Assembly (NCBI GenBank): GCA_964557535.1
Contig: CAZLAD010000003.1
Location: 25,671 to 89,670, forward strand
DNA from: an uncultured Candidatus Saccharibacteria bacterium
GTDB lineage: Bacteria; Patescibacteriota; Minisyncoccia; Phycocordibacterales; CSBR16-119
Length of the DNA: 64,000 nucleotides
Direction: 5' to 3'
Shown piece by piece: positions 5,184-64,000 of this stretch (positions within the stretch are counted from its first letter, which is position 1; each line of letters opens with the position of its first letter). Under the pieces are notes generated by a model that did not search any database, was not told the origin of the DNA, and saw nothing but the letters and a program-made list of their open reading frames with translations. The translations under genes and the position numbers were made by a program.

Positions 5184-5391
5184 GGTGAGGGGGTTGGTTA
5201 AATTTTTGTGAATGTACAGTCCACTCTTTGAAAACTCAAACTGCTTCAAGTTCTCAAAAGTGGGGGCGAAGCGTAGCCTCGCCCACTTTGGATTGGTCGT
5301 CTCGCGACGAGCTTCAGTTTCAGGGGATCCTACTCTCCCTAACCAGAGGCTAGACTGTCTGTGACTTTGGCTAGCTTTGTTTGGGTTTTTC

Positions 5392-24562: not shown

Positions 24563-25600
24563 ATGACAATTTTTGAACAAGTCTTTTTTAATTTAGGACC
24601 AGTTATTTTTGGTTTGGCTGGACTCAGCGTCGCCAGTTACGTTTACATAAAGAAAAAAACAGCACGACCGATGGTTTGCCCACTAAACGGCGAATGCGAA
24701 GTTGTCACGACCAGTAAATATTCCAAATTCTTTGGCATCCCAGTAGAACTTCTGGGAATTTTGTATTACGGACTTATTGTTTTCGTCTATGTTTTACACA
24801 ATCTCATACCATGGCTTTTGTCTGACACTGTTTTGTTCTTCGTTGTCGGGATGACTATCGGTGCGTTTATTTTCTCTCTTTATCTAATTTTCATACAAGC
24901 TTTTGTTTTGAAAAAGTGGTGTACATGGTGTCTGTTCTCGGCGGGATTTTCGACGTTTATATTTATTACAGCTATTTTTGGAACACAGATTGATGTGGTT
25001 GGTTTCTTGGCAACTTACAAAACTCCAATTATTATCATCCACGCTCTCGCCGCCGCGGTCGGTGTCGGGACGGCGACCATAACGGATATTTTCTTCTTCA
25101 AGTTTTTGCGCGACTATAAAATTTCTGAAAGCGAGAAAAATCTTCTAGATACGCTTTCAAATGTTATTTGGTTTGCGCTTGGAATTATTATTTTGACAGG
25201 AATCGGTCTTTACTTACCGGCGTCTGAAAGACTTGCCGAATCATCTAAATTCCTAACCAAGGTCGTGGCTGTAGCTGTCGTTACGATAAACGGCGTGTTC
25301 TTAAACTTGGTCGTTTCACCGAAAATGCTCGAAATGGATTTTTCGAATTCTGAAATTTCTCAAAAATCTGGCACACGTTTCATGCGCCGACTATCGTTCG
25401 CGCTTGGCGGTATCTCGATCTCGAGTTGGTACATCATCTTCGTTTTGGGGTCTCTCAAATCGATTCCCGTATCTTTCAAAACAGCAGTGATACTCTATGG
25501 ACTAGTCTTGTGTTTCGCGGTCGTTGCGACTCAGTTGCTTGATCGCAAAATGGTGCGAAATTACCAGGTAGAACAAGATAAAAATAATTCAAATGTTTAG
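24563..25600 (+). CDS. Vitamin K epoxide reductase (VKOR)-family membrane protein with an additional C-terminal multi-TM domain
   Basis: 345 aa. The N-terminal VKOR core has the active-site 'CTWC' after TM helices. The C-terminal half is hydrophobic. Confidence 0.7.
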   Translation: MTIFEQVFFNLGPVIFGLAGLSVASYVYIKKKTARPMVCPLNGECEVVTTSKYSKFFGIPVELLGILYYGLIVFVYVLHNLIPWLLSDTVLFFVVGMTIGAFIFSLYLIFIQAFVLKKWCTWCLFSAGFSTFIFITAIFGTQIDVVGFLATYKTPIIIIHALAAAVGVGTATITDIFFFKFLRDYKISESEKNLLDTLSNVIWFALGIIILTGIGLYLPASERLAESSKFLTKVVAVAVVTINGVFLNLVVSPKMLEMDFSNSEISQKSGTRFMRRLSFALGGISISSWYIIFVLGSLKSIPVSFKTAVILYGLVLCFAVVATQLLDRKMVRNYQVEQDKNNSNV

Positions 25601-40454: not shown

Positions 40455-40554
40455 TAATTTATAAGTTTTAAACACTTTTACACATTGACAATATCTTATT
40501 GTGTTTTTTTACTTTATAATAAACTCATTAAAACTTTATAATTATTATCATTGT

Positions 40555-43500: not shown

Positions 43501-46500
43501 TTTAACTCCGGACTCGATGGATGGGTAAACGAATCTAAAATTGATGCATTTGTTCCACAACCTCCAACCGCAAATATTACCGCACCAACCGCTGGACAAG
43601 TTCTCGCTTCTGGTACAACAACGGTAACTCTATACGTAACAACAAACGAAGCTGCTACTTGTAAATGGGCAACAACAGACATGGCTTATGCTTCTATGAC
43701 GAATACCTTTACCGGCTCTGGATCGACTTCTCACAACTATCCGTTACTTGGATTGACCGATGGAACACAATACACGCGATATGTTCGTTGTGCGGATACC
43801 GATGGTAATCAGATGACATCAAGCGTAAGTGTTTCGTTTAGTGTTGCGACAAGTGTGCCGACCGGCGATCCTGTCGTAAATACTACATGTCCAGCGACGA
43901 TGCCTACTATTGAGTACGATGCTCGAAACGCAGCGAGACTAACTGTTCAACTTTGTGCTCAGATCTCGGAAAGCTCTACACCAAAAACGATCACGCTTAA
44001 GTGGGCAAATGTTACAGGAAGAACGGTAAGTAGCATTACAATTTATCGAAAAACAGAAACTGGTTCATGGACAAGCGTCGGCACGCCGGCTGCTTCATCA
44101 ACAAGTTGGACAGACACAAATGTTACCGCTGGTACTTACTATGAATACAAAGTTCAAATGGTCACTGGTGGCTCAGAGGGAACAGTCTATGGATACATTG
44201 CTTCGGGTATAAAAGTTCCTCAAGAATCTTATCGAGGAAGACTGGTTTTGGTTGTTGATAACACCAAAGCTAACGGACTAAACGGTTCTGCTCCAACTTC
44301 TGGTCCACTCGCAACACAAGTTAGCCAGCTCATAAATGAATTAACTGGCGATAAATGGATCGTATCCCCTGTGTATGTTAGTCAGAGCGCAACACCAGCA
44401 ACAGTTAGAGCCTTGATAAAAGGATACTACGATACAGACGCGGGCGATGGTAATTCAAATACAAATACAAAAGCAGTATATATCTTTGGTCATGTTCCGG
44501 TTGCGGGTATAGGTAATCTAAATCCAGATGGACACGGAGGAAGAGGAATTTCAAGTGACGTAATTTATAGTGAAATGACTTCGACTTGGAACACGGGCTC
44601 CGTTGGATCATCGGCCGGTTATGGTGTGTCAGCAGGTTTCACTATGCCAAGTACTCATACTTATAACAATCCAACTCCAGACGCGGGAGAGCTACAGGTT
44701 GGACGTGTCGATATGTATAATCTTCCTGGTATGCCGGGGACCGAAAATGAAAAACTTACTAACTATCTTGCAAAGGCAACAAATTTCAAAAAACGACTAT
44801 ATACGCCAACTGACACGATGTATCTAAGAGCTAGAACTCCTTTCACATCTTCGGGTATGGCCGGCTGGAGTAGTACAGCCTCTGTGGTCGGACCTCAAAA
44901 CGTGACTCACGATAGAACAGCAAGCGACCTTTGGACAAACTTGGGTCAAAATCATCTCTTTGTTCTAGGTTACGGACAAAGCGGTGGCGTGTTGGCGGTA
45001 GACAAGATTCCTCAGCCAGGGCTATGTATTTCTGGATGCGGTTCAAACAACTTGACGAGTGTTAGCTGGGGTGGAGTATTTAACGCCCTCAGTTCAAGTT
45101 ATATCGTTGAATGGAACGATACAAACTCAATCCTGCGATCTATTTTGGCCGATGAAGGAAAATCACTTACTATGTCATACGGCATAGATAACCATTGGTA
45201 TTTCCACCACATGGGAATGGGCAAGACCGTCGGGTATTCGGCGCTTAGCTCGCTAAACAACAATACGAACTTGTATTATCCACGAGGCATGACAGGTGAT
45301 TGGAATAATTCAAGCAATGGAAACAATGCATACGGTCACATGGCACTCCTTGGAGACCCAACTCTTCGTGCTCACTATGTTGGTATGCCGACAGGAAATC
45401 TCTCTATTACAAACAGTGGCGGATTGGCAGCGTTTTCATGGGGTGCGTCGAGCGATTCACCGCTTGGATATAACCTCTACGAGATTCAGACGAATACGAT
45501 TAGAAAAGTAAATTCAAATATTATTTCTGGAACTTCATATACTTCTTCTGATAGCTATGATGCAAATAGAAAGTATATGGTAACGGCGGTTAAAGTGAGG
45601 GCTGGTAATAGCGGAACATACTACAATGAATCCCTAGGACTTATTGGTGGAGGTGACGGAGGCGGTGTACTCTTGGGCGATCTCGATAACCCAACATGGT
45701 CTGGAGGAACATCGAATCTCACGGTTACTTCACCAACTGCAACTTCTCTCGCTACTTCGTGGAACACTGCAACAGACGCGACACAACCTGTAACTTACAA
45801 ACTTCAAAGAAGAGCGAGCGGAGGATCATTTGCCGAAGTGTATAGCGGAACAGCAACGTCTTTCTCAAATACAGGACTTGTCGCAGGGACAACCTATGAA
45901 TTTCAAGTGAGAGCTTGTGATGGCGTAGGAATTCCAAACTGCACCAGCTGGTCTTCGACGGTTTCAGGCACAACAACAGCAAACGACACTACATCACCAA
46001 CAACTCCGGGCGCTCCGACATCTACTGGCATAACAGCTTCATCGATCAGTCTTTCTTGGACTGCGTCGACTGACGCCGTAGGCGTAACAGGCTACAAGAT
46101 TTACAGAAGCGCAACAGCTGGTGGAACTTACTCAGAAATCGGAACTTCGGCAACGAATTCCTATACAGACACTGGACTTTCGGCAAGTACATCGTATTAC
46201 TATAAAATTTCCGCATACGACGCTGCTGCGAATAATTCTGCTCAATCAAGTGCTTCTGCTGCGATCACAACTAGCCAAGCTCAAAGTGGGGGACAGACAG
46301 TCTCTGGTATCAATGGTCCAGTTGGTCCGAGCTTAACGACAAATCAAACCTCTTGTACCAATCCTTCCGGTGGAACGATTTACTACGTAGATGCTGTAAA
46401 TGGAAATGATTCAAACAACGGAACGTCAGTTAGTACAGCTTGGAAAACAATCACCAAGGTCAACAACTCGATGTCTAGTATCAACGCCGGAATGATGCTT

Positions 46501-48453
46501 TGTTTCAAGAGGGGCCAGACACATCGCGGTAAACTTTCATTCATAAAATCTGGAACATCAACATCTCCAATTATTATCGATGCATATGGAACAGGTTCTG
46601 CACCAGTTATCTCTGGTAATGTTCTTGTGACAAATTGGACCCAACACTCTGGAAATATTTGGAAAGCAACACTTTCTAGTGCACCGGTAACTCCACCAAA
46701 ATATTTGTTCGTCAATAGTGATTATCAAACAATGGCGCGTCAACCAAACACTGGTTGGTATTACACAGAAGCTCGTGCCGCGAACTCTCTAACGGACACA
46801 AATAACTCTTGGCTTTCTTCACAATCTGCTAACTCTTTGACTGGCGCAAATATCTTCATGAGAGGAACACCTTGGTCAAGTTCAGTTATTCTTGTAACGG
46901 GCAATTCAGGTTCTACTATAAACGGTGAACGCTGGGATGACCTTACGCCAGGAGTCGTGTCAGGCACGCCAACAGCTATTAAATACGGTACGACATGGTC
47001 TGATCTTGCATGGGGATATTTCCTCCGAAACAAGGTTTCCTTCATCGACACACCAGGCGAATGGGCATTTGATTCGGCCACAAACACTGTCTATTTATGG
47101 GCACCAGGAAGTGCAAATCCAAACAACCTGACAGTAGAGCTTTCTTCAGAAGCAGAGGGCATCTACTTGAATACAGCAAGTTATGTCAAAGTTAGAAACT
47201 TGATTGTCGAAGGCCAAACAACCTACGCCATTCGTATGAGTTCTAATCGTGGTGTGACGCTTGAAAACAATGAAATTAGAAATGCTTACATTGGAGTTCA
47301 CCAATATTTCACGTCTTCTAGTTACACTACCCCAAACTTATTCTCCAATAACCACATTCATGACATAAACACAGCTGGTCTTTCTTTGAACGTGTCAGGT
47401 TCTGGAGATGTTGTAGAGGGCAACGTTGTCGAAAATATCTCAACCGTCGAAGACAGAATATTCTCTTCGGACATGACACATATCGGTATCTTGCCTCCGA
47501 ACAACAATGGAATCACCAGAAGAAACATTATTCGAGATATTGGATGGTCTGGAATCGCGGCAAGTGGATCTGGCCTTATCACCGAAAACTTGATTGAACG
47601 AACGATGAAGATTCACACTGACGGTGCCGGTATTACATTTGACAATACTGACGGCTTGGTGATGAGTAAAAATATCGTCAAAGATACGGGGGTTGGTTCT
47701 GGTCAATACGCAGGAACAACTGCAGGACCAGGAGCAACGACCAACATGGTTTCAATGCCTCTTATTTACAATGGTTATTCGGCAAAAGACAAGGCTTTCT
47801 ATGTCGGAGATAGTTCAGCCGGCGGTCCACCAAAAAATTACACAATCGATGGAAACATTATCATCAATGCCACCGACGGTGTTTGGATGGATCATCCAAA
47901 CGGTGTAATCAATAATAAAGTAACCAATAACGTAATCTACGATTTCAATCGGGCAGGTATCGGAATAACGAATTATTCGATGAATCGATCGACAACCTGT
48001 GATCCGGCAGAAAATAGTGCGTGCTTTAGAAATTTTGACGACACGATTACCGGAAATAAGATTTATGGCGTTGCTTCTTATCAAAACCCACTTTATTCTC
48101 TCCAGTCATGGAGTAATGGCGCGGGAGCGGTAGTTGATTGGGGAACGATTAACAATAACTACTACTACAATCCGTTCAGAACTGGCAAGATTTATGAAGT
48201 TAGAAACTTTGGTACAGGCGAAAATCAATGGACATTGGCTCAGTGGCAAGCAGCACGTAGTGAAGATCTCAATTCCACATCTTCGAACTATACTTTGACC
48301 AATACAAACCAAAAAGCCCAAATCTTCTATAATGCGACTGGTTCACCGATCACTCAATCAGTAAATGGATGTAATGCTAATGGTACACCTCTAACAGGTA
48401 ACCAGACGATTCAACCATTTACCGCGCTAGTAGTAGAATATGGAAATTGTTAA
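40555..48453 (+). CDS. Giant secreted or surface protein (about 2630 aa). Signal peptide, one GCMDPxATNYN...DDGSC Cys-motif, multiple fibronectin type III-like domains, a duplicated 95-aa 'CKW' module, and C-terminal right-handed parallel beta-helix (pectate-lyase-like) repeats.
   Basis: ATG at 40555 precedes 'MKLQRAFFLVIALAFVVSLGTLLTG'; the GTG at 40501 is rejected. Many FN3 blocks ('SAIRINWSASTDNVAVAGYKIYRN', 'SWNAVTDPSSPVSYKIYRN'). Two homologous modules around 42050-42340 and 43560-43850 ('TNE[NA]ATCKW...TRYVRC'). PbH1-type repeats from about 47150 to 48100 ('NNEIRNAYIGV', 'GNVVENIS', 'NIIRDIGWSGIAAS', 'KNIVKDTGVGSG'). Confidence 0.8.
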   Translation: MKLQRAFFLVIALAFVVSLGTLLTGGDNQKAQVVSGTNSIALTAPASGTTVSVGQTLPMTCQAEVAQGYGLSRLKFSWFQNNGAEAGDLKDNQYDPYMSSGTFTENVTIPNITPGSNFKLQCVGYYKDLSDLSIPAISKTQSLTMNLVTVPVSVPGCMDPLATNYNQNATLDDGSCIYPVVDTTAPSVPTSLTAALPTSSAIRINWSASTDNVAVAGYKIYRNDGGNTPMNLTTPIATVIAPSTTFLNQGLVANRKYKYQIRAYDAAGNDSGLSSAITVTTRSVSTPTNVAVTSPTTVSLTVSWTPPSASNTFSYKIYSNHANGGGTSTINTTTPVGEVFVSSGSNMFVFGDNDPATPMPQLAPNTQYRFRVAAVDDANNRSTLMPNVSSGVSGTTLGNTTPPPSAPSGLNVVTTGSTTATATWTDNSNNETGFTLQRATNSGFSSNLVTISSTISANSQSFGVTGLSAGSTYYFRVQANASTPSAWATFGPLTLPVADTTAPTATITAPTAGQVLPAGTASTTLAVTTNENATCKWNSTDASYSSMTGSMAGTGTMSHTATLTGLVNGTSYTRYVRCQDVAGNPMTTSQSRTFSVAVPADTTAPAIPTLSVGTITSETVALSWNAVTDPSSPVSYKIYRNGTYIGSPISGTSTTDSGLVAGTLYSYTISACDNAPTQNCSAQSTTVTATTTAIPTIVSSLQVVQTNGTVVSTLTSGQQLNVGSQTNATYPPLNGAFSVKANPGTPAPTSIKFELTGPSGFTAYTQCESASPFAMYGDASGTYTSWPTATQILGAYTLTVTPYAATTCTGAAGTPIVSQFILANFDDLTNPTNPSQANATYRSSGEIRLSWTASSDSSGISHYNVTRTPGGIVNVGNQTTYVDTNGLNGTTGYTYTVTAVDNVGNSSGVSNAVVSPTLSTTFSNADLVQTNEASVEVKASPDAPNGIGFQTNPNSAGTITNAPTSPTNPVWVKNEGDYWYVNFNSGLDGWVNESKIDAFVPQPPTANITAPTAGQVLASGTTTVTLYVTTNEAATCKWATTDMAYASMTNTFTGSGSTSHNYPLLGLTDGTQYTRYVRCADTDGNQMTSSVSVSFSVATSVPTGDPVVNTTCPATMPTIEYDARNAARLTVQLCAQISESSTPKTITLKWANVTGRTVSSITIYRKTETGSWTSVGTPAASSTSWTDTNVTAGTYYEYKVQMVTGGSEGTVYGYIASGIKVPQESYRGRLVLVVDNTKANGLNGSAPTSGPLATQVSQLINELTGDKWIVSPVYVSQSATPATVRALIKGYYDTDAGDGNSNTNTKAVYIFGHVPVAGIGNLNPDGHGGRGISSDVIYSEMTSTWNTGSVGSSAGYGVSAGFTMPSTHTYNNPTPDAGELQVGRVDMYNLPGMPGTENEKLTNYLAKATNFKKRLYTPTDTMYLRARTPFTSSGMAGWSSTASVVGPQNVTHDRTASDLWTNLGQNHLFVLGYGQSGGVLAVDKIPQPGLCISGCGSNNLTSVSWGGVFNALSSSYIVEWNDTNSILRSILADEGKSLTMSYGIDNHWYFHHMGMGKTVGYSALSSLNNNTNLYYPRGMTGDWNNSSNGNNAYGHMALLGDPTLRAHYVGMPTGNLSITNSGGLAAFSWGASSDSPLGYNLYEIQTNTIRKVNSNIISGTSYTSSDSYDANRKYMVTAVKVRAGNSGTYYNESLGLIGGGDGGGVLLGDLDNPTWSGGTSNLTVTSPTATSLATSWNTATDATQPVTYKLQRRASGGSFAEVYSGTATSFSNTGLVAGTTYEFQVRACDGVGIPNCTSWSSTVSGTTTANDTTSPTTPGAPTSTGITASSISLSWTASTDAVGVTGYKIYRSATAGGTYSEIGTSATNSYTDTGLSASTSYYYKISAYDAAANNSAQSSASAAITTSQAQSGGQTVSGINGPVGPSLTTNQTSCTNPSGGTIYYVDAVNGNDSNNGTSVSTAWKTITKVNNSMSSINAGMMLCFKRGQTHRGKLSFIKSGTSTSPIIIDAYGTGSAPVISGNVLVTNWTQHSGNIWKATLSSAPVTPPKYLFVNSDYQTMARQPNTGWYYTEARAANSLTDTNNSWLSSQSANSLTGANIFMRGTPWSSSVILVTGNSGSTINGERWDDLTPGVVSGTPTAIKYGTTWSDLAWGYFLRNKVSFIDTPGEWAFDSATNTVYLWAPGSANPNNLTVELSSEAEGIYLNTASYVKVRNLIVEGQTTYAIRMSSNRGVTLENNEIRNAYIGVHQYFTSSSYTTPNLFSNNHIHDINTAGLSLNVSGSGDVVEGNVVENISTVEDRIFSSDMTHIGILPPNNNGITRRNIIRDIGWSGIAASGSGLITENLIERTMKIHTDGAGITFDNTDGLVMSKNIVKDTGVGSGQYAGTTAGPGATTNMVSMPLIYNGYSAKDKAFYVGDSSAGGPPKNYTIDGNIIINATDGVWMDHPNGVINNKVTNNVIYDFNRAGIGITNYSMNRSTTCDPAENSACFRNFDDTITGNKIYGVASYQNPLYSLQSWSNGAGAVVDWGTINNNYYYNPFRTGKIYEVRNFGTGENQWTLAQWQAARSEDLNSTSSNYTLTNTNQKAQIFYNATGSPITQSVNGCNANGTPLTGNQTIQPFTALVVEYGNC

Positions 48454-48750: not shown

Positions 48751-49179
48751 ATGAAGAAAACAGTTTCTCCAGAAGTTAAAAAAAATTTTAAAATAATCCG
48801 TGCCCAAAAGGGTTCTGGTATGGGACTTATGGCCATGCGGGATTTCAAAAAAGGTGAGCGGATTATTGAATATACGGGTATAATTAAAAAAACCAAAGAT
48901 GTCGAAGATGATACGACCAAATATCTCTTTGAAATTAACAAAAGCTTTACGATAGACGGTTCGCCCAGATGGAACTTGGCTCGTTACATTAATCACTCCT
49001 GCGCCCCAAACGCTGAGTCGGTGGTGACCAAAGGTCAAGTTTTCATTGACGCCATCAAACCAATCAAGGCCGGCGACGAGATTACATATGATTACGGCAA
49101 AGAGTATTTCAATGAATTTATAAAACCGGTTGGCTGCAAGTGTGTTAAATGTTTAACCAAAAATAAAAATGGAAAATAA
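48751..49179 (+). CDS. SET-domain protein (putative protein lysine methyltransferase)
   Basis: 'RYINHSCAPNAE' (NHSCxPN) plus 'GDEITYDYG' and a C-terminal Cys cluster 'CKCVKC' (post-SET). Start taken at 'MKKTVSPEV', preceded by TATACT. Confidence 0.7.
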   Translation: MKKTVSPEVKKNFKIIRAQKGSGMGLMAMRDFKKGERIIEYTGIIKKTKDVEDDTTKYLFEINKSFTIDGSPRWNLARYINHSCAPNAESVVTKGQVFIDAIKPIKAGDEITYDYGKEYFNEFIKPVGCKCVKCLTKNKNGK

Positions 49180-49861
49180 CGAAATAAAAGAAGAAACAAT
49201 AACTGCCACCAAACAAAGACTTAATATTCCCTCCGCGATTGTTTTGGCTGGGGTAATTATTGCAGCGGCGGTGTTTTTAAAGGGGGCACAGCCAGCCGCG
49301 AAAGCTACAACTGATAGTGGGGACAAACTCGATCTGGTAGCTGAAGTCACAGAAGATGATTTTGTCAGGGGAGAAAAAAGTGCGCCCGTAACGCTTATCG
49401 AGTATGCCGACTTTTCATGTCATTTCTGTGCAGATTTTCAGTTGACGCTTAAAAAGCTCGTCGATGAATCGGCTGGTAAAATCAAGTGGGTTTATCGACA
49501 TTTGCCAATTTTTAACATTGAGGCGGCCGTTGCGAGTACTTGCGTTGGACGTCTTGGCGGAGATGATGCTTTTTGGCAATACGCCGACACGTTGTTTACA
49601 AATAGAGACAAATTTGGAACCTCGTATTATAAAAAACTGGCCATAGATTTAAACATTAAAGAATCCGAATACGATGAATGTGTAAATAATCCAGAAACAG
49701 AAAGAGTGATCAAGGCCGACTTTACCCAGAAAAGAACCCTTCTTGGCTTTAATGGCACACCACACATGGTTTTGATTGACAAAAATGGCAAAAAGTTTTC
49801 TATTACGGGAGCTTTGCAGTACGAAGAGCTAAAATCAGTAATTGATTCGCTCGATAATTAG
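49169..49861 (+). CDS. DsbA-family thiol:disulfide oxidoreductase (membrane-anchored)
   Basis: 230 aa. N-terminal TM, thioredoxin-fold active site 'FSCHFCADF' (CxxC). Confidence 0.75.
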   Translation: MENNEIKEETITATKQRLNIPSAIVLAGVIIAAAVFLKGAQPAAKATTDSGDKLDLVAEVTEDDFVRGEKSAPVTLIEYADFSCHFCADFQLTLKKLVDESAGKIKWVYRHLPIFNIEAAVASTCVGRLGGDDAFWQYADTLFTNRDKFGTSYYKKLAIDLNIKESEYDECVNNPETERVIKADFTQKRTLLGFNGTPHMVLIDKNGKKFSITGALQYEELKSVIDSLDN

Positions 49862-56694: not shown

Positions 56695-58434
56695 ATGACG
56701 TCGGTCGCCAAAATAAAAACAACAAAAAAATTTTTCGCAGTCTTTTTCTTGGTTGTTGCGGGTATTTTGGTTGGTTTTAATTTAGCGTCATCCCAAGAAC
56801 CAAGCCCTTTTGAGCTGGGCGATGTTTACGGTAACGCTTGGATGGGAACTCATATTGAAAATATGGGCATGAGCGAAGGCGGGGGAGGCTGGCTTCGTTT
56901 TAATTGTTTGCCAGATAACTGCGACAGTACTATTGGTGAATGGGGTGTCAAAATTGACGCTGATCAAAACAGTCCAGGTTACGGTGAGTTTGCTGGCTAT
57001 GCATGGAGTTCAAACTATGGTTGGTTTAGCTTAAATCCTGGCGATGTCGCAACTTGTTGGATGCAAAATCCAGACGTTACTTCGACCAGCGTGGCCAAAG
57101 CCCTCCTTGGTCAAAGTAGCGACGTCGAGGTGCCGGTTGTCGGTTGGGGTAAATTTCTAGCTGGTGACGATGTCTATGATGATGGTTGGGACGGGTGTGT
57201 CGCCTTTGGTGGTTTCAATAATTCAGTTCGATTAAACAGAGAAGACGGCGCCCTAAAAGGTTGGGCGTGGGGAGGAGAAGTTGTCGGTTGGGTAAGTTTC
57301 CAAAATCCAGAATGTCCGTTTTGTGATACTACAGTTGTTCTAGACAGAATCGTCGGTTGTATGGATCCAAATGCAACCAATTATAATCCTTTGGCCACAG
57401 TCCCTGGCAGATGCAGTTATGGGCCACCAGTTGTGGGTTGTATGGATCCAAACGCCACAAACTATAACCCACTTGCCACCGTCCCGGGTAGATGTAGCTA
57501 TGGTCCTCCGGTTCGTGGTTGTACCGACTCAACAGCTACAAACTACAACCCATTGGCAACAATAGACGATGGAAGTTGTACATATGGTCCGGTAGATCCA
57601 GATGGTGATCCTCGCCCAACACTTAATCTTCAGGCTACTCCAAATACTCTATACGTTGGAAGCTTAAATTACACGACGGGGCTAACATGGACATCGGATC
57701 AGCCGTCAGAACTTTCTGGTTGTGTCGGAAGTTTGACCGGTACAAACGTTTTGGATCTAGGCAATCAGACTAACTGGGATGGTCCACGAAGTTCTCCAAA
57801 CATTACTACTCCATTTGACGTAAACCTCGCACCGTATGCATCGACGGCTGTCTCTGGAAATCAATATACCTTTAGATTAACGTGTAATTTGTCTGGCGGA
57901 GGAATAATATTCGACACTGCCGTGGTTAACATGATCGATCAAATAAATCCAACCGAACCACCTCTTATCTCACTTCAAATTATCTATCCGAACATCGATA
58001 GTAATTTGGCTACAGAAAATATTGCGCCTTGGAATCCAATAACGCTGTCCGGAGGTATGGATCCAGTAACACTTAGGTGGCAGGCCCTAAACGTTGTTGA
58101 TGGATCATGTGTTGGTACTTCCAAAGTATTTAATACGCCGACATCTACTGGCGATGGCCCGAACTTGGCTCCAAGTACATATCCAGGACAGGCGGCTTGG
58201 GATAGTTTGGCACTATTGCTTGACGGTGGAGGTTATGGACAACTTAACCTAAATGTCACAAATCCAAACTATATTAAAAACACTAAATTCCAGATTAGTT
58301 GCGAGCCGTTAAATAATCCAGGAACTACGATCAGGGCACAAGTTTGTCTGGGTGTCGAGGGTCAACAGTTCCCACAATCTCAGTGTCAAGCAGGAAATAG
58401 CATAAATCGTCCACCAGGTTACAAAGAAATTTAA
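56695..58434 (+). CDS. Secreted protein with three tandem copies of the 26-aa Cys-motif (GCMDPNATNYNPLATVPGRCSYGPPV x2, GCTDSTATNYNPLATIDDGSCTYGP)
   Basis: 579 aa with an N-terminal TM/signal. The tandem 78-nt DNA repeats at about 57355-57590 differ at many synonymous sites although the amino acids are identical. A palindromic terminator CATAGCGCGTAG-aaaatt-CTACGCGCTATG follows at 58458-58487. Confidence 0.6.
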   Translation: MTSVAKIKTTKKFFAVFFLVVAGILVGFNLASSQEPSPFELGDVYGNAWMGTHIENMGMSEGGGGWLRFNCLPDNCDSTIGEWGVKIDADQNSPGYGEFAGYAWSSNYGWFSLNPGDVATCWMQNPDVTSTSVAKALLGQSSDVEVPVVGWGKFLAGDDVYDDGWDGCVAFGGFNNSVRLNREDGALKGWAWGGEVVGWVSFQNPECPFCDTTVVLDRIVGCMDPNATNYNPLATVPGRCSYGPPVVGCMDPNATNYNPLATVPGRCSYGPPVRGCTDSTATNYNPLATIDDGSCTYGPVDPDGDPRPTLNLQATPNTLYVGSLNYTTGLTWTSDQPSELSGCVGSLTGTNVLDLGNQTNWDGPRSSPNITTPFDVNLAPYASTAVSGNQYTFRLTCNLSGGGIIFDTAVVNMIDQINPTEPPLISLQIIYPNIDSNLATENIAPWNPITLSGGMDPVTLRWQALNVVDGSCVGTSKVFNTPTSTGDGPNLAPSTYPGQAAWDSLALLLDGGGYGQLNLNVTNPNYIKNTKFQISCEPLNNPGTTIRAQVCLGVEGQQFPQSQCQAGNSINRPPGYKEI

Positions 58435-58604
58435 GTACGAGTACGTAGTACATAGCGCGTAGAAAATTCTACGCGCTATGTCATTTCTACGAACTACGCA
58501 TTACGCTCCAATCAAGGTTTTCCACATTACTGTTTCGCTTCGTCAAATTAAAACTTGCGAAGGTGATATTATATAAAGAGCTTTATAAATTTATTATCAA
58601 AACT

Positions 58605-61600
58605 ATGCGTAATTTATTATCAAAACTTTTTCTATCTTTTTTTATTCTTTTGTTTGCAACTCCGGCTCAACTTTTGGCCCAAGAGAATACATGGACTGCT
58701 CCAGCCGGCAACGCTCCTGGATTTAACGTCGCGGCGCCTGTAAACATCGGTCCTCTCACTCAAACCAAGAAAGGTCCACTTATAATCGAAAACCGATTTT
58801 TGGGTGGTGCGGTAACGAATCCGTCTAACAACCAAACGATTAGTGCACTCGAAACAATGGCTGGGTCAACAACGACTCGAGGAGCCACGATCTTTGATGC
58901 GTATCCGGCTGGATCGTCGATGGAATCTTCGCCAGCTTTTTTCTTGTCTTTTGTGAGGTCTATATTTGCCAATCACGTTCAGATTGGTGATCAGTCACCT
59001 AGTATGGGCGGTAGAAATTTGAAACTTTTTGGTAATTTCCAATACATCCCTACAAACGAAGAAGATGGTACTCCGGCAAACAATCAGCCAATGCCGGGCT
59101 ATGCTCTAACAGCGCTAGATACTCAGGGAAACACCGGCTGGCGACCAGCTCTTCCAAACGGTGGGAATGATGGCGATACCCTTATATGGGATGTAGATTG
59201 TCAGTGTTGGGTTGTTGGACCAGTAACAAACACAAACGGCGGTACTCTTCCATCAGGTGCACAGGGTCAGACTCTGTGGTACAGCGCGCCGAACGTTTTG
59301 CAAGCAACAAATCAGATAAGACATGGAATTGGCCCTGATGGCACCACCACAACGACTGTTTTAGAAAATGAAGACATAACCATAGGTGCAGCTGGAGGAG
59401 CTATGGGTGCTGGTATAACTAGAATTATGACTCCAAATACTGGTATCTTAGGTTACGGAACCATCGATATTGGTGTCAATACAGACGGGCAAACAAATAT
59501 CAATTCACAACAAGTAACATTTACTGAACCAGCGGGTAACAATTTCTTCCAGACAGTTGACGTTAAGTCTAAATATGTAAATTTTACAGCTCCACCATCG
59601 GGTGCGGATAGCCAGGTTGTTGATTTTGCTTCGAAGACGGTGAATTTTGACGACGGCGCTGGTCAGATAGCTGACTATCAAACAGTCAATGTAAAATCCG
59701 GCAACACAAATTTCGTTGGTCCTACTGTTAGTTTCCAGGACGCCAACGGTCAGCCTTCAGATTATCAAACCGTCAATGTAAAATCTGGCAATGTTAATTT
59801 TGCTGCACAAGATGATGGAGGAAATCAGACCGTTACTTTTGAGTCAGATACTGTTAAGTTTAGAAATATCGACATGAATCCTGGCCAGGGAAGAATCCCT
59901 TATGCCATGGATGATGAAGGACGTTTTGTGTGGAATAAAAACTTTGTTTATAACCAGCAAGACGTTCCAGGAGTCGGGCTTGTAAACGAACTTCGATTGA
60001 AAAACGATCAAGTCGGCCAAGGTCAAACAGCTACTCCAAGCGTTCTTACCAATGAAGGATTGACTCTACTTCAAGATGACGTGTTTGTGGATGGCGGAGA
60101 TTTGGCAGTGACAGATCAAGGAGATCTCTATCTCGAGGGCTTAGCACAAGCTTCAGTATTAGAGATTAGTCAAAATCAGGTAAGACAACTTTGTTACGTA
60201 GAGAATACCAAAAAAATAGTGAGTTGCAATACAGTTGTCCCGGGTAGCGGCACTAATCCATCCTTGGAACCAGTGTACGAGACAGATTACGAAGTTTTCA
60301 GAACAGCTGAGAATAACACAGGACCTCTCAGTAGTTATACATTCAACTCTAACCAAGCCGTAGATCTTAAATTCTGTGGTGGAGGCGGCGGTGGAGGCGG
60401 AGGCGGAGGTGGTATTCTTGGAAAAGGAGGCGGCGGTGGAGGCGGCGGTGGAGCCGGGCCTTGTCAGATTTTAGAGGGTTTTCCTGTTAGCGTTGGAGAT
60501 GTTTTGAGTTGGAATATTGGTGATGGTGGGGAGGGGGGTCTTGGAGCTAAAAAACAAGAGGGTCAACCAAATATTAATACATTAGCTTCTGATGGTTTAA
60601 ATGGCTTCCCCACAAGTGTGTTTATTGACTACGCAAACGATTCTTTGGGCCCTATTCAAATCGGTCAAACTCAACAGGGTGGTTTTGGTGGTAAAAAGGG
60701 TCAAGGATTTAATAACCCGAATAGTTGTGTTTATAATGCTGCTGTTACTGGATCGGCTGGTGGAAAAGGTGGTAATGATTCTTTAAGTGGGTATGAAGGT
60801 AATGAAGATTGTGCTGATTTGATACTGGTTATTCCAACATGGCACGACGGTCAAACAGGTTGTCTTGGAAATACTGGTGGCGGAATTCAAAATTGTTCTG
60901 TAAACAGTGACCTTGGTGGTTATGGTGGTGACGGAGAAAATCCAGTAGGATCAGTTTTGCCGCCCATATCTGGAACAGCAAATAGTGCCGGAGGTAATCC
61001 TGGTATAGATGATTATGCAGAAACGATGACGTCAGACCATTTAGCTAATAGAACTGGTGGTCCTGGTTATGCTGGTTCGCCTGGTAATGGAGGAGGAGGT
61101 GGAGGAGGAGGATTCGGTAGTGCAGAATACACCAACGTTGAAGCTGGTGTTATAACCGGCGTATCTCCGCTCGTGTCGTGGACAAAATGGCCTGGTGGTG
61201 GTAATGGTGGAAAGGGTGGAAGTGGATATGTTCAAGTTACCGGAATCTTAAATAATACATCTGGTACAAATGCCGTAGAATTTACAATACCTTCGACCAA
61301 CACTCCTTTTGCCGTGAACGCTATTCCTGTGGCAGTTAATACTGTAACTATCGAGGTGTGGGGCGCATCCGGAGGAGGAGGAGGAGTAAAAACTGGACTC
61401 TTTGCTGATAGAATTGCTGGTGGTGGAGGAGCGGGCGGTTATATAAAGGTTGAGGATGTTCTAAAAACTCAACTTGGAACAGGAAACATGTTGATAAAAG
61501 TTGGCAGTGCTGGTTCTGCCGGAAATTCGTCTGGTGATTCTAGCGAAGTTACAAATGGCGGTAATGGCTCTGATTCTTGGATTAAAAAATCAGATGGTAC

Positions 61601-61898
61601 CGTTATTGTGTCAGCTTCTGGTGGGTCGGGTGGACCAAAAGATATAACTAGTAGCACAGACTCAATTTATCCAAACGGTGGGCTTGGTGGAGGATTTTCA
61701 ACACCTTCAGTTGCTGGAACAGTAACATCTTCACAGGGTCTGAGTGGATTGGGCGGTAGCAATGGCGGCGGCGGAGGAACCAACTCTATTGGAGGAAATA
61801 TTAATAACGGAGGATCAGGAGCTTCAACAAATACTTGGGCTGGCTTGAGTAACCAGTCGACAGGAGGTCAAAACGGAAAAGTCAGAATCTCTTGGTAA
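58605..61898 (+). CDS. Large (about 1100 aa) secreted glycine-rich protein with poly-Gly tracts
   Basis: Signal peptide 'MRNLLSKLFLSFFILLFATPAQLLAQEN'. Runs 'GGGGGGGGGGGILGKGGGGGGGGGAGP', 'GNGGGGGGGGFGS', 'SGGGGGVK', 'GGGGAGGYIKV'. No catalytic motifs recognized. Confidence 0.6.
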   Translation: MRNLLSKLFLSFFILLFATPAQLLAQENTWTAPAGNAPGFNVAAPVNIGPLTQTKKGPLIIENRFLGGAVTNPSNNQTISALETMAGSTTTRGATIFDAYPAGSSMESSPAFFLSFVRSIFANHVQIGDQSPSMGGRNLKLFGNFQYIPTNEEDGTPANNQPMPGYALTALDTQGNTGWRPALPNGGNDGDTLIWDVDCQCWVVGPVTNTNGGTLPSGAQGQTLWYSAPNVLQATNQIRHGIGPDGTTTTTVLENEDITIGAAGGAMGAGITRIMTPNTGILGYGTIDIGVNTDGQTNINSQQVTFTEPAGNNFFQTVDVKSKYVNFTAPPSGADSQVVDFASKTVNFDDGAGQIADYQTVNVKSGNTNFVGPTVSFQDANGQPSDYQTVNVKSGNVNFAAQDDGGNQTVTFESDTVKFRNIDMNPGQGRIPYAMDDEGRFVWNKNFVYNQQDVPGVGLVNELRLKNDQVGQGQTATPSVLTNEGLTLLQDDVFVDGGDLAVTDQGDLYLEGLAQASVLEISQNQVRQLCYVENTKKIVSCNTVVPGSGTNPSLEPVYETDYEVFRTAENNTGPLSSYTFNSNQAVDLKFCGGGGGGGGGGGGILGKGGGGGGGGGAGPCQILEGFPVSVGDVLSWNIGDGGEGGLGAKKQEGQPNINTLASDGLNGFPTSVFIDYANDSLGPIQIGQTQQGGFGGKKGQGFNNPNSCVYNAAVTGSAGGKGGNDSLSGYEGNEDCADLILVIPTWHDGQTGCLGNTGGGIQNCSVNSDLGGYGGDGENPVGSVLPPISGTANSAGGNPGIDDYAETMTSDHLANRTGGPGYAGSPGNGGGGGGGGFGSAEYTNVEAGVITGVSPLVSWTKWPGGGNGGKGGSGYVQVTGILNNTSGTNAVEFTIPSTNTPFAVNAIPVAVNTVTIEVWGASGGGGGVKTGLFADRIAGGGGAGGYIKVEDVLKTQLGTGNMLIKVGSAGSAGNSSGDSSEVTNGGNGSDSWIKKSDGTVIVSASGGSGGPKDITSSTDSIYPNGGLGGGFSTPSVAGTVTSSQGLSGLGGSNGGGGGTNSIGGNINNGGSGASTNTWAGLSNQSTGGQNGKVRISW

Positions 61899-62000: not shown

Positions 62001-62903
62001 ATGAAATTAAGAAAACATCTAAATCTAAAAAGTGAAAAAGTTCTGCTTGTTTTGTTCGCGCTTTTGTTTGCCACGACATCTCTTCAGACTCTAGCTATTG
62101 TTAAAAGCTACAAAAACAACAATATAAATACCAATCAGTCCGCTCAGGTTATTGGCAAATATCCATCTACTTCAAGTACACTTCCTTACAATAATTGTGT
62201 TACGGTACTTGATCACAAATACAATCAGATATTTTCAAGCCCTCTTGAGCCAGTCAATCTAAATCCAAATGGTAATACAAATGACACCGATTATACCTAC
62301 GAAGTTTACTTCAATGTTAAAAACAACTGTGACAGGCCGATTAGCATCATAGATCCTTCGAGTATGTCTTCGCCATACAAAGGAAATCCCGGATTTTATA
62401 CTATCAATTCCTTCGCGCTCGAATTAAATAGCCTACCTTCTCCAACGGACATCTCTCTTGCTCCGCCAGCTTCTAGTTTTGTCGATGCGGCGCGCGAGGA
62501 GGGAGATTGTGTAAATTGTGCTCCGACAGATTTGGCTTTCAGGGTGTCGCCGGCTGGTACACTCAATTATCAGGGCAATGATACCAATTTGCGAATGTAC
62601 AACATCCCAGCTGGTCAGACCAGAATTGTGAGTTTCGTTTTGCAAATAGGGCGACCTTATCCTACTTTCGGCATTAGTCATTTCCTTAGAGCAAAATTAA
62701 AATCATTCAAATGGACTTATACGAATTCTTACATCAGTGGTGGAATTGTCTCCGCGGACGAGATATTTACAACAACTCTATCGGCTAGCCAGCAACAATC
62801 TTTTGCGACAGATTTCGCAAATATCTATCAAGATGGTAATCCAAATTGCTCGAGTGGCGGAACTTTAGGTATCAATAGTGACGGTGTCCCAGTTTGTCAG
62901 TAA
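62001..62903 (+). CDS. Secreted hypothetical protein
   Basis: About 300 aa. Signal 'MKLRKHLNLKSEKVLLVLFALLFATTSLQTLA'. A bidirectional terminator GAGAAAGCGCGGCCggatGGCCGCGCTTTCTC follows. Confidence 0.5.
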   Translation: MKLRKHLNLKSEKVLLVLFALLFATTSLQTLAIVKSYKNNNINTNQSAQVIGKYPSTSSTLPYNNCVTVLDHKYNQIFSSPLEPVNLNPNGNTNDTDYTYEVYFNVKNNCDRPISIIDPSSMSSPYKGNPGFYTINSFALELNSLPSPTDISLAPPASSFVDAAREEGDCVNCAPTDLAFRVSPAGTLNYQGNDTNLRMYNIPAGQTRIVSFVLQIGRPYPTFGISHFLRAKLKSFKWTYTNSYISGGIVSADEIFTTTLSASQQQSFATDFANIYQDGNPNCSSGGTLGINSDGVPVCQ

Positions 62904-62967
62904 GACTAAAAATAGAAAACGAGAAAGCGCGGCCGGATGGCCGCGCTTTCTCATTCAGCGAATATGA

Positions 62968-63954
62968 CTAATCGCGAATGAGTTTGGTCGTCCTTGTCCC
63001 TTTTTCGGACTCGACGACAAGATGGTACAACCCTTTGGACTGAGTGGAGACTAGCTCCGTTAGCCCTGTCTCGGTAACTTGACCAGATGCGACTAGACGC
63101 CCTGCGGCATCCAAGAGGCGATATTCCTCTTTGGCGTTTGCCTGGAAGAATAGTCTGTCGCCGTCCCATGGGTTTGGGTAAACGATCAGGGCAGGTTGAT
63201 TCGTTGGTTCCACATGTGTGGAGATACTTTGGACAGTCTGGCAGACTTCCTCAGTACCGAGGTTGATCACGTGAGGATCAAATAGTGGCGTGTCGCCAGT
63301 GTCCATCCATGCGAGAGTCGCTTGGGCACACACTTCGATCGCTGGTCCGTCGTAAACCCATGCATGTTCGTGGACAATGTCCGTCCACGAATTATGGAGT
63401 TCTGCAACGAAAGTCTCAAGAACCTCACCCTCGCCATCAACGATCTCGACGGTTTGGAGAAGTTCCTGTTCCGCGCAACGCCCGACCAATTCGGCCGGAA
63501 GTCCCCAGAAGGGACCAGTTGTTACTCGAAGTCGGAACTCCGAAGTACTACCGGAAATATTCTCAATCGTAACCTCCGGAGTCTCTTCCCAGACGTGAAT
63601 CGAGTTTATTCCGATTGGTTCACAAGTCTCGACGTTGCCGTCGAAAATCCCGATCACCACTTGGTGCTCTTGTAGGAGCGTCGTCACGACCTCGTTGTAT
63701 TCCACCATGAAGATTCCTCCTCCGGTGGGTACGGATAGGGTGTGATGGGGGCTACCGTCAAGGTAGCACGCCAAAGTCCTCGGGCCGGAAGTCTCGACTT
63801 CCACCCGCACGGTGATGTTGCCCGGCTTGCTCGAAAACCAAGCCAAGGATTGCCCGTTGTCGCAATGACACGGGCTTAGCGCTATCTGATCTTGCGCCTT
63901 TGCCAAGACAGGCAAAAGCAGAAGGGTTAAAACGACAAGGAGCGGTTGTTTCAT
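62968..63954 (-). CDS. Secreted protein with a Bacteroidetes-type type IX secretion (T9SS / Por) C-terminal sorting domain; GC-rich (about 55%)
   Basis: Signal 'MKQPLLVVLTLLLLPVLAKAQ'. The C-terminal 'LIVYPNPWDGDRLFF...YRLLDAAGRLVASGQV...KGLYHLVVESEKGTRTTKLIRD' fits the T9SS C-terminal domain pattern (YPNP...GR.V......GxY.L.V.....K.I). Its GC content and codon bias differ strongly from the rest of the window. Confidence 0.6.
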   Translation of the reverse strand: MKQPLLVVLTLLLLPVLAKAQDQIALSPCHCDNGQSLAWFSSKPGNITVRVEVETSGPRTLACYLDGSPHHTLSVPTGGGIFMVEYNEVVTTLLQEHQVVIGIFDGNVETCEPIGINSIHVWEETPEVTIENISGSTSEFRLRVTTGPFWGLPAELVGRCAEQELLQTVEIVDGEGEVLETFVAELHNSWTDIVHEHAWVYDGPAIEVCAQATLAWMDTGDTPLFDPHVINLGTEEVCQTVQSISTHVEPTNQPALIVYPNPWDGDRLFFQANAKEEYRLLDAAGRLVASGQVTETGLTELVSTQSKGLYHLVVESEKGTRTTKLIRD

Positions 63955-64000
63955 GGCAGGTTTGGGTTTTTTGTAGTTTATCATAGAAGTAGACGATTGT

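Follow-up and report, generated by a model that had tools for sequence, protein, structure and literature searches.

The minus-strand gene at positions 62968-63954 of the 64,000-nucleotide stretch analysed here (contig CAZLAD010000003.1; below, the window) is predicted to encode a secreted protein that ends in a homologue of the type A C-terminal domain (CTD) of type IX secretion system (T9SS) substrates, and it does so in a bacterium of the candidate phyla radiation (CPR, or Patescibacteria). Together with the steps of the mechanism set out in the last section, the data make it rather probable that this is an intact, native and vertically inherited gene of one Paceibacteria-like CPR lineage, neither an artefact nor a recent import. 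A first-pass annotation of the window had drawn attention to the unexpected combination of a T9SS domain with a CPR genome, and both terms of it, domain and host, have been upheld. The two origins that it proposed, a contig chimeric near its end or a horizontal acquisition from a Bacteroidetes neighbour, have not, the latter being taken here as a recent event, for reasons given below.

Gene product, C-terminal domain and host

The list of open reading frames (ORFs) contains a minus-strand ORF of 338 aa at 62968..63984, within which the ATG at 63954 opens a frame of 328 aa beginning MKQPLL. In a 98.5%-identical strain from another sequencing run (SRR12900997; L085) a stop codon interrupts the 10-codon upstream extension and the MKQ frame is uninterrupted. 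Since, in addition, the -10 box of the promoter falls within that extension, ATG 63954 is taken as the true start, in agreement with the gene and signal peptide first annotated. Public gene calls start the family gene at an internal methionine in the members P0001 (L085 3155-3895, 246 aa) and P0003 (L095 10913-11662, 249 aa), despite a full ORF with an intact signal peptide in both, so that signal peptide and first domain are often missing from the family's database entries. The parts of the gene are as follows.

62968..63954, minus strand: coding sequence of the 328-aa family protein, with stop codon 62968-62970 (ORF list, L085 stop, promoter position).
63895..63954, minus strand: Sec signal peptide, residues 1-20 (MKQPLLVVLTLLLLPVLAKA); cleavage is predicted before Gln21 (sequence reading; helix at residues 4-13 in the AlphaFold2 model).
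63595..63891, minus strand: beta-sandwich domain 1, residues ~22-120, with a C-D-N-G motif and invariant Cys31 (AlphaFold2 block-mean pLDDT 87-97, family alignment, Foldseek).
63232..63582, minus strand: beta-sandwich domain 2, residues ~125-241, Cys160 invariant and Cys238 nearly invariant (AlphaFold2 block-mean pLDDT 76-94, alignment).
63199..63222, minus strand: flexible linker, residues 245-252, the sole segment with pLDDT <50.
62971..63183, minus strand: T9SS type A CTD homologue, residues 258-328, with a YPNPW motif, a GLY motif and C-terminal TKLIRD (hidden Markov models, AlphaFold2, profile match to solved CTDs).

Cleavage after MKQPLLVVLTLLLLPVLAKA is predicted to leave a mature N-terminus QDQ, the Gln21 of which is nearly invariant in the alignment of family members. 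A Sec signal peptide of the type found on functional T9SS substrates is thus present in the window copy and is kept across the family. The AlphaFold2 model, obtained with a 16-sequence family alignment, has a mean pLDDT of 86.6 and comprises two beta-sandwiches, a disordered linker and a seven-strand C-terminal sandwich. Its Foldseek matches in the PDB are fibronectin type III (FN3) triplets and stalk modules of bacterial adhesins (ice-binding adhesin, SiiE, Bap); enzymes are absent among the matches. Modelling thus shows the gene product, as a prediction of high confidence, to be a Sec-exported protein of three beta-sandwiches. The initial suggestion of "possibly a decoy or adhesin" is plausible as regards an adhesin-like role, the three sandwiches being of the immunoglobulin (Ig)/FN3 kind.

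The claim that the C-terminal ~70 aa form a T9SS sorting domain was confirmed when the profile search proposed for it was run. TIGR04183 (Por_Secre_tail) matches residues 258-326 over model positions 1-70 of 72, with 38 bits against a curated cut-off of 23 (E 1.2e-9), and PF18962 gives 28.7 bits against a gathering score of 27. The match is well beyond chance. The domain lies at the extreme C-terminus (258-326 of 328), after the passenger domains and the disordered linker at 245-252, and its fold in the AlphaFold2 model is a complete seven-stranded beta-sandwich. A profile made from the family tails matches solved T9SS CTDs (7pzj, E 1e-10; 8glk_D, 8glj_D, 5jvk, 8qb1 and 5m11), the tails of mirolase and PG93 being among them. 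The 75-residue CTD chains 8glj_D and 8glk_D we take to be those of the substrate-translocon complexes of PMC10994853. These results show the domain to be a true homologue of the type A T9SS CTD.

In type A domains the conserved motifs set the fold and make no contact with the translocon, with one exception, an almost invariant functional Lys near the C-terminus (PMC10994853). The window copy has Lys at this position (TKLIRD). Across the family, however, the position is occupied by Lys in 6 of 22 members, by Arg in 12 and by a non-basic residue in 4, as compared with Lys in 8 of 11 ordinary tails from the same search. TIGR04183 is matched at E <= 0.01 by 14 of the 16 aligned family members. Since conservation extends to the fold but not to the single residue associated with T9SS function, the alignment suggests that the family tail has probably been repurposed and is not a working T9SS signal.

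The host was placed by its threonyl-tRNA synthetase (ThrRS), which is 62-84% identical to those of metagenome-assembled genomes labelled Paceibacteria, Nomurabacteria, Campbellbacteria, Paceibacterota, Patescibacteria and "Saccharibacteria" (labels that are coarse in these reference genomes) and at most ~50% identical to that of any record without a CPR label. These identities place the host in the CPR, where it is most likely Paceibacteria-like. The window is chromosomal and lies near the replication origin; its genes include those for DnaA, DnaN, TyrRS, ThrRS, PBP1A, RNase Y, the CCA-adding enzyme, ComEC, RNase H and HU. Its YidC is short (251 aa), which, like RNase Y and PBP1A, is compatible with a monoderm-like cell. 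The CPR-type genome recognised at the outset from RNase Y and the short YidC is thereby upheld, with ThrRS in addition.

T9SS has been described for the Fibrobacteres-Chlorobi-Bacteroidetes (FCB) superphylum only, and reviews place it there together with ~238,000 TIGR04183 proteins (PMC11205867); by its ThrRS the present host falls outside that superphylum. A cultured CPR bacterium is reported to lack an outer membrane (preprint 10.64898/2026.03.03.709456). The search for T9SS components that the first-pass annotation had recommended found none among the ~45 annotated ORFs of the window and the 10 kb beyond it (~74 kb of genome). A 2650-aa ORF considered as a SprA candidate proved to be an fn3/beta-helix surface protein. 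Two genes of the window, a VKOR homologue (24563-25600, plus strand) and a DsbA-like thioredoxin (49169-49861, plus strand), form an extracytoplasmic disulfide-forming pair, which suits the many conserved cysteines of the lineage's secreted proteins.

A conserved family at a conserved locus

Word-indexed homologue searches, whether queried with the protein or with the family profile, gave almost no matches; the protein query found only the gene itself. The family emerged from an exhaustive HMMER scan of 1.84 billion representatives, which yielded 34 proteins. Some 20 are full-length relatives of ~325 aa with 20-31% identity; in P0014 and P0024 the body is present in tandem duplicate with a single tail. 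The remaining matches cover the CTD only and resemble ordinary cargo tails. Family-wide features of the alignment are a signal peptide followed by a nearly invariant Gln, the C-D-N-G motif with its invariant Cys, a second invariant Cys within a GGC.EH-like motif, additional conserved Cys positions, and the tail.

Genomic context was analysed for 11 distinct members: L001 (the window), L080, L086, L088, L090, L091, L092 (with L093), L094, L095 (with L096), L097 and L098. In all 11, the family gene stands tail to tail with a homologous partner gene of 240-300 aa, and a hairpin terminator separates the two. The elements adjoining the gene in the window are listed here.

62001..62903, plus strand: convergent partner gene, 300 aa, with an N-terminal transmembrane helix, a beta-rich extracellular domain and four invariant Cys (alignment, synteny).
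62917..62956, minus strand: intrinsic terminator hairpin between the convergent genes, an 18-pair stem with 10 G-C pairs followed by a T-run (L001 11029-11068).
63975..64000, minus strand: promoter TTGACA-17-TAAACT with TG (-10 TAAACT 63975-63980, extended -10 TG 63982-63983, -35 TTGACA 63998-64003; L001 9982-10010).
58650..61898, plus strand: Gly_rich_2 giant surface protein, 1082 aa (PF21722), in the conserved surface block adjoining the gene pair.

Except on the short contigs L086 and L097, the surrounding gene set is likewise shared; it consists of genes for ComEC, a metallo-beta-lactamase, L28 and an M50 peptidase, a ~100-aa gene, a 575-830-aa gene and the Gly_rich_2 giant, or of RecJ/HIT/PGK/TIM. 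Gly_rich_2 homologues adjoin the gene pair in L080, L090, L091, L092, L095 and L098. All recovered contexts are of CPR type and homologous to that of the window; L080 was placed by synteny and homology to the window, infC/rplT beside thrS being indecisive as a taxonomic yardstick. The partner has no match in Pfam or NCBIfam. It was considered as a sortase-like enzyme and is not supported as such: Cys and Arg residues are invariant, yet there is no invariant His to complete a His-Cys-Arg triad, and no family match.

No homologue of the protein body was found in any recovered non-CPR context, the HMMER scan having given only this small family and the CTD-only matches. A search of viral contigs and Joint Genome Institute metagenome contigs with a tighter subgroup profile found no relatives, leaving a phage vehicle for the gene unsupported. 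The borders of the gene show no mobility genes, repeats, integrase or tRNA. Thus, of the usual marks of a genomic island the gene has the atypical composition, but its presence is not patchy, the homologous site being occupied in 11 of 11 contexts, and neither close relatives of it in a donor lineage nor bordering mobility genes or repeats were found. The comparison of loci indicates that this lineage has conserved the gene and passed it on vertically. The ancestor of the family already had the tail. Its most economical origin is probably an acquisition of the CTD module, long ago, from a bacterium of the FCB group; Bacteroidota are reported as one of the commoner sources, outside the CPR, of genes acquired by Patescibacteria (PMC12455944).

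The junctions of the gene with its surroundings are reproducible. The exact protein is encoded on the 223,756-bp contig of European Nucleotide Archive entry ERZ4208449, where the window corresponds approximately to 145,095-209,094, and on the Logan contigs DRR685533 and DRR685535, with identical neighbours on both sides; strain L085 has the same arrangement. The window end is not a contig end: the archive contig runs on for 14.6 kb past it, and GC is back at host level directly past the gene. In the 21-kb locus L001 the GC-rich stretch (0.53) comprises exactly one gene, with flanks at 0.37-0.44 on both sides. The density of single-nucleotide polymorphisms (SNPs) between the window strain and L085 amounts to 1.1% for the gene, compared with 0.9-1.6% for the genes beside it, and this agreement argues that gene and flanks share one history. 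Because four independent assemblies have the same junctions and host-like DNA resumes past the gene, the contig is not chimeric.

The expression signals are of the lineage's own type. In 10 of 10 loci examined upstream, TTGACA (TTGACT in L080) is followed, after a spacer of ~17 bp, by an extended -10 element TGnTAnnnT, and then by a short, C/A-rich leader without a Shine-Dalgarno sequence; in the window copy only the last 3 bases of the -35 box lie inside the window. Promoters of exactly this form are rare in these loci, occurring about once per 5-10 kb. A GC hairpin with a T-run follows the stop codon of the family gene in 10 of 10 loci examined downstream. Shine-Dalgarno sequences are nearly absent throughout the lineage, an SD-like 4-mer preceding 4 of 75 genes. 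The sequence comparison thus shows what appears to be a monocistronic gene with a near-consensus sigma-70-type promoter, a leader devoid of a Shine-Dalgarno sequence and a strong hairpin terminator. As promoter and leader match those of the lineage, the gene would use the CPR cell's own type of signals. Bacteroidota promoters are of the -33/-7 type, which differs from the TTGACA/TATAAT type. The idea of a gene built for expression in a Bacteroidota host was discarded in view of the TTGACA/TGnTAnnnT promoter and the native-type leader. Many genes of the window have a TAnnnT -10 box ~5-12 nt from the start codon (e.g., upstream of 18400, 24563, 27622, 35546, 51899 and 52604), a spacing that suggests widespread leaderless or near-leaderless mRNAs.

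Within this constant setting the family gene itself diverges strongly. It is 20-34% identical between genomes whose flanking genes are 45-85% identical. Between the window and its closest relative, L095/96, identities are 71% for ComEC, 72% for the metallo-beta-lactamase, 75% for M50, 80% for fn3 and 78% for NHL, as against 52% for the partner and 34% for the family gene; between L088 and L091, M50 is 85% and the family gene 25% identical. The similarity of the alleles is not in step with the relatedness of the genomes. SNPs between the window and L085, in counts that are small, divide into nonsynonymous and synonymous changes as 7/4 in the family gene, 1/7 in the partner and 14/21 in the PD40 gene. 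By these comparisons the family gene appears as the fastest-evolving gene of a conserved surface-protein block, and its behaviour, small SNP counts notwithstanding, resembles that of a hypervariable surface protein. The block itself is a dense run of genes for large secreted proteins at the window end (56695-61898; 40501-48453; L001 1581-9944), among them a 579-aa orphan, the Gly_rich_2 giant with poly-Gly runs, PD40/CarboxypepD_reg, fn3 and NHL-repeat proteins and the 2650-aa fn3/beta-helix protein. Its order is partly kept across genomes, with two small genes of ~100 aa usually ahead of it.

Tails of the same kind occur on other proteins encoded next to the family gene. Two genes upstream of it in L098 have CTD-like tails with Arg at the Lys position; they were recognised by our own CTD profile and by sequence reading, and neither protein reaches the TIGR04183 cut-off. 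In L093, three tandem proteins match our profile, the weakest being a 355-aa protein (E 2.8e-4), and only the 342-aa one passes TIGR04183. The proteins concerned are the following.

L098 6754-8538: PQQ_2/SBBP beta-propeller, 594 aa, tail ...YPNPGAAG...GVYLLTF...RVVIN.
L098 8729-9895: 388-aa orphan (h388) with a CTD-like tail.
L093 323-1390 and 1516-2544, L092 3-257, L090 3-401: further proteins with CTD-like tails adjoining the family gene.

The lineage thus seems to possess a small repertoire of CTD-tagged secreted proteins. A second feature is shared more widely. Counted by eye, a Gln directly follows the A-x-A site in ~19 of 29 predicted secreted proteins from the window, L001, L088, L090, L093, L095 and L098 (e.g., ...LLA/QEN in window 58563-61898 and ...ASS/QEP in window 56695-58434, the slash marking the cleavage site), and the proteins concerned include native ones of low third-position GC, such as the Gly_rich_2 giants. 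The "Q-rule" of Bacteroidetes, by which signal peptidase I substrates have Gln at +1, was published with a mean of 71% and reported as absent outside the phylum (PMC5837995; see also PMC10653852). No glutaminyl cyclase was found within the window. The signal peptide that had been called "Bacteroidetes-like" is therefore real, but it is no foreign mark, Gln +1 being the norm in this lineage.

Base composition and mRNA structure

The family gene has a GC content of 53.4%, compared with roughly 42% for the chromosome; it had correctly been described as GC-rich, at a slightly overstated "about 55%". Most of the excess falls on the third codon position, where its GC content (GC3) reaches 0.58, compared with a median of 0.39 among 14 other genes of the window. 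In the eight loci compared formally, the GC3 excess over the neighbours' median amounts to +0.19 to +0.38 (z 2.8-16.6) and shows a tendency to move with the baseline of the host (Pearson r = 0.69, p = 0.06, 8 loci). The same excess is seen in L086, L097 and L098. G and C are both raised at third positions, in two-fold and four-fold codons alike and in every degeneracy class, a pattern that rules out translational selection for C-ending codons.

The excess goes together with a highly structured transcript. The mRNA of the window gene folds at -386 kcal/mol, compared with -328 +/- 10 for dinucleotide shuffles (z = -5.9). Three controls were applied, in small sets of 12-20 shuffles per gene: dinucleotide shuffles, permutation of synonymous codons, and third-position swaps within 15-codon blocks, which leave the protein and the local GC3 unchanged. 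Folding z-scores were as follows.

Dinucleotide shuffles: eight family genes, -2.2 to -6.0; ordinary neighbours, -1.5 to +1.1.
Synonymous-codon permutation: family genes, -1.6 to -7.9; ordinary neighbours, -2.7 to +1.8.
Third-position swaps in 15-codon blocks, global fold: family genes, -2.8 to -4.9; ordinary neighbours, -0.3 to -1.7.
Same swaps, local 120-nt windows: family genes, -3.0 to -4.8; ordinary neighbours, -1.3 to -2.6.

The block-limited swaps rule out local compositional heterogeneity as the source of an artefact. In 11 of 12 GC3-rich genes tested, L091 being the exception, the excess folding energy of the sense strand is ~2x that of the antisense strand, which indicates that the structure lies in the transcript itself. 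A hidden conserved antisense ORF was ruled out, since the stop-free stretches of the antisense strand are not homologous between loci. High expression is not a sufficient cause of the GC3 richness either: in L098, the genes for EF-Tu (GC3 0.25, z +0.4), EF-G (0.28, -0.8) and S7 (0.34, -0.4) are AT-rich at third positions and not hyper-structured, as compared with 0.51 and -4.9 for the family gene. We infer that selection on mRNA structure, as opposed to a foreign origin, accounts for the GC island. The structure may serve the lifetime of the mRNA, the pacing of translation for export, or the avoidance of premature termination.

The family gene belongs to a wider class of GC3-rich, hyper-structured genes in the lineage. 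The CTD-tagged beta-propeller of L098 has a GC3 of 0.50 and z of ~-9 to -10, and its homologue at L001 1-1468 (589 aa, 27% identical to the L098 copy, ~8.5 kb past position 64000) a GC3 of 0.57 and z of -3.8 to -5.1. A second GC-rich island of the window is the gene at 5392-6471 (minus strand) for a pyridoxal phosphate-dependent enzyme (PALP, PF00291, cysteine synthase-like), the product of which is not secreted; with a GC3 of 0.58 it surpasses in folding excess all other window genes that were measured (whole-gene shuffles, z -8.6 to -10.5; block-limited swaps, -8.0; range over the controls, -5.6 to -10.5). The adjoining 211-aa ORF (4782-5417, minus strand) has a GC3 of 0.57 and is not hyper-structured (z -1.1). 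The same is true of a 271-aa orphan secreted protein at 20730-21545 (plus strand), whose signal peptide MKKKLVISCVMTVFWLHAFG is followed by Q (GC3 0.57, z -1.3). It has no Pfam or NCBIfam match and no CTD, and could be either truly foreign or one more surface protein specific to the lineage. The S12 gene call of L098 (5869-6369) has an implausible N-terminal extension (VVYWPCPHTYF...); its folding z of -5.5 is probably due to a structured leader inside the gene call and not to the coding sequence.

Competing explanations and known systems

The reading favoured here, that of a native CPR gene, implies the following course of events. The protein would be exported by Sec and its disulfides formed by the VKOR and the DsbA-like protein encoded in the window. 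It would be retained on or close to the surface of a cell that has no outer membrane, where, to judge from its fold and context, it might act as a hypervariable adhesin-like or host-contact protein. If the cell indeed lacks an outer membrane, the CTD cannot serve as a signal for translocation across one; it would have been taken from an FCB-group bacterium long ago and retained in folded form for use in attachment or binding, in which the partner protein may take part. The GC3-rich codon usage would be upheld by selection that favours strong folding of the transcript and acts on mRNA lifetime or on the pace of translation.

Several points weigh against this account. We infer the absence of T9SS and of an outer membrane from ~74 kb of this genome and, for the rest, from publications on the CPR generally, and localisation and function are deduced from the predicted fold and from context. 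The window's own copy retains the Lys and could still be read by a T9SS. Conversely, the CTD motifs are degenerate in two members, P0004 and P0007, and the CTD may thus not be essential. A physical link between the family protein and its partner is suggested by synteny, and the AlphaFold2 model of the partner is poor (pLDDT 59.5; helix at residues 14-42). As to the transcript, the family member L091 has weak or no local excess folding, and the AT-rich third positions of the EF-Tu, EF-G and S7 genes mean that high expression alone does not explain a structured, GC3-rich mRNA.

The alternative that survives best, though we regard it as unlikely, is host mimicry, in which Sec-exported CTD proteins engage PorV, SprA or the attachment complex of a Bacteroidota host as adhesins or decoys. 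The tail is common to several secreted proteins of the lineage (the family, the PQQ beta-propeller, h388 and the tandem paralogues), most of the secreted proteins have Gln +1 as under the Q-rule, the locus is as variable as would be expected of a host-contact protein, the window copy keeps the PorV-contacting Lys, and links between Bacteroidota and Patescibacteria have been proposed (PMC12455944). On the other hand, the functional Lys is replaced in most family members, and the binding site of the CTD is inside the SprA pore of the translocon (PMC10994853) and would presumably be hard to reach from outside the host cell.

Slightly less credit is due to a CTD-dependent sorting or attachment system of the CPR cell's own, with the tail read by monoderm machinery such as a peptidase or transpeptidase that anchors proteins to the wall or S-layer. 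Sorting by a terminal signal has familiar analogues: sortase reads LPXTG, and PorU reads the CTD. A C-terminal domain shared by unrelated passengers is the usual sign of a dedicated sorting system, and it fits with this that the tail is conserved while the passengers diverge, that a basic residue lies near the C-terminus in 18 of 22 members and that a conserved membrane-anchored partner adjoins the gene. Yet no candidate enzyme was found, the partner lacking both a family match and the invariant His that would complete a catalytic triad with its Cys; there are only a handful of CTD proteins per locus, and two family members have degenerate tails.

It is improbable, in turn, that the protein is a surface-filament subunit like the Ig-domain Pam pilins of the CPR, with the partner as anchor or chaperone. 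The Pam system likewise has Ig-like domains in tandem with cysteines in pairs, a beta-rich neighbour anchored in the membrane and no outer membrane, and the strong promoter would suit an abundant structural protein. However, the CTD is a complete seven-strand sandwich and not a truncated Ig fold in need of a donor strand, the transmembrane helix of the partner is N-terminal and not C-terminal, and Pam homologues are reported mainly in Saccharimonadia and Microgenomatia.

A recent horizontal acquisition, in which a cargo gene from a Bacteroidota neighbour had not yet drifted to host composition, is largely refuted and retains very little probability. It would account for the homology of the CTD with Bacteroidota cargo tails and for a GC content and GC3 well above the host's, and Bacteroidota are, as mentioned, reported among the frequent donors (PMC12455944). 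It does not account for the presence of the gene at the same locus with the same partner in all 11 CPR contexts in copies only 20-34% identical, for the scan of 1.84 billion representatives having returned only a small family without body homologues in recovered non-CPR contexts, for the native type of promoter and leader, for Gln +1 being the norm in the lineage, or for the clean borders. Nor would foreign ancestry predict that the GC3 excess, conserved as it is, should track the host baseline and be tied to sense-strand mRNA structure. A misjoin near the contig end, finally, may be dismissed: in its favour there is only the sudden step in GC over the final 1 kb of the window, and against it stand the 14.6 kb of contig beyond, the return of GC to host level directly after the gene, the identical junctions in four independent assemblies from different runs and the synteny kept in other genomes.

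Automatic annotation already attaches the label "T9SS type A sorting domain-containing" to such proteins, and the bare domain match is therefore not new. Novelty seems to lie in a conserved CPR family with this tail, the relaxed constraint on its Lys, the repertoire of CTD proteins, the parallel to the Q-rule and the account of the GC island in terms of mRNA structure; no paper linking CPR or Patescibacteria with T9SS sorting domains was found in the literature searched. In the FCB group the type A CTD counts as a marker of T9SS; here it is conserved in a lineage expected to lack an outer membrane and a T9SS. Since the lineage should have neither, the CTD does something else or targets the T9SS of another organism. 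Either answer would be informative for the biology of the CPR cell surface and possibly for finding the hosts of uncultured CPR; mimicry, if true, would name the host of one such group. The one-gene GC-rich island, which any composition-based method would call horizontal transfer, is here a conserved native gene with synonymous sites shaped, as we read it, by mRNA structure. It is a warning for the detection of such transfer in CPR genomes, and a case in which strong selection on the structure of a coding RNA can be put to the test. Should the Q-rule parallel hold genome-wide, a feature described as particular to Bacteroidetes would have a wider range. More tentatively, it is conceivable that one Paceibacteria-like CPR lineage has adopted both Bacteroidota/FCB signatures, the type A CTD and Gln +1, without a T9SS; that the tails act as monoderm sorting signals or as mimics directed at a host T9SS; and that the genes belong to a class whose mRNAs are selected for structure and which shows up as single-gene GC-rich islands resembling horizontal transfer.

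Four known systems invite comparison. The first is the type A cargo of T9SS in Bacteroidota/FCB, which has the same plan (Sec signal peptide with Gln +1, passengers, linker, seven-strand CTD) and the same PNP, GxY and basic C-terminal motifs. The present protein differs in that its host belongs to the Patescibacteria, outside the FCB group, with no T9SS seen in 74 kb; in that the functional Lys is not conserved in the CPR family; in its passenger, an orphan fold family restricted to this CPR lineage; and in its TTGACA/TATAAT promoter, as opposed to the -33/-7 type of Bacteroidota. The second is the Q-rule, which about two-thirds of the predicted secreted proteins of these loci appear to follow (by-eye count, ~29 proteins), in a CPR host as opposed to the phylum to which the rule was held to be confined.

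Pam pili, built from PamA/PamB pilins with PamC/PamD chaperones (bioRxiv 10.64898/2026.03.03.709456) and compared here by published description and not by sequence, resemble the present system in their CPR origin, their Sec-exported Ig-like multi-domain surface proteins with paired cysteines, their membrane-anchored beta-rich helpers and the lack of an outer membrane. In the pilins, however, a truncated C-terminal Ig fold is completed by a donor strand, whereas the CTD considered here is complete and of T9SS type; and the transmembrane helix of the Pam chaperones is C-terminal, and they are encoded in the same operon, whereas the helix of the partner is N-terminal and the two genes are convergent.

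The last comparison is with hypervariable surface-antigen loci, such as those for O-antigen, capsule and flagellin, which occupy fixed positions and have an atypical composition. Conserved flanks, deeply divergent alleles and a composition unlike that of the rest of the genome are common to these loci and to the one described here. They differ in that a single gene is involved here and not a cluster, in that its GC content is higher and not lower than that of the genome, and in that the shift is tied to a measurable excess of mRNA structure.

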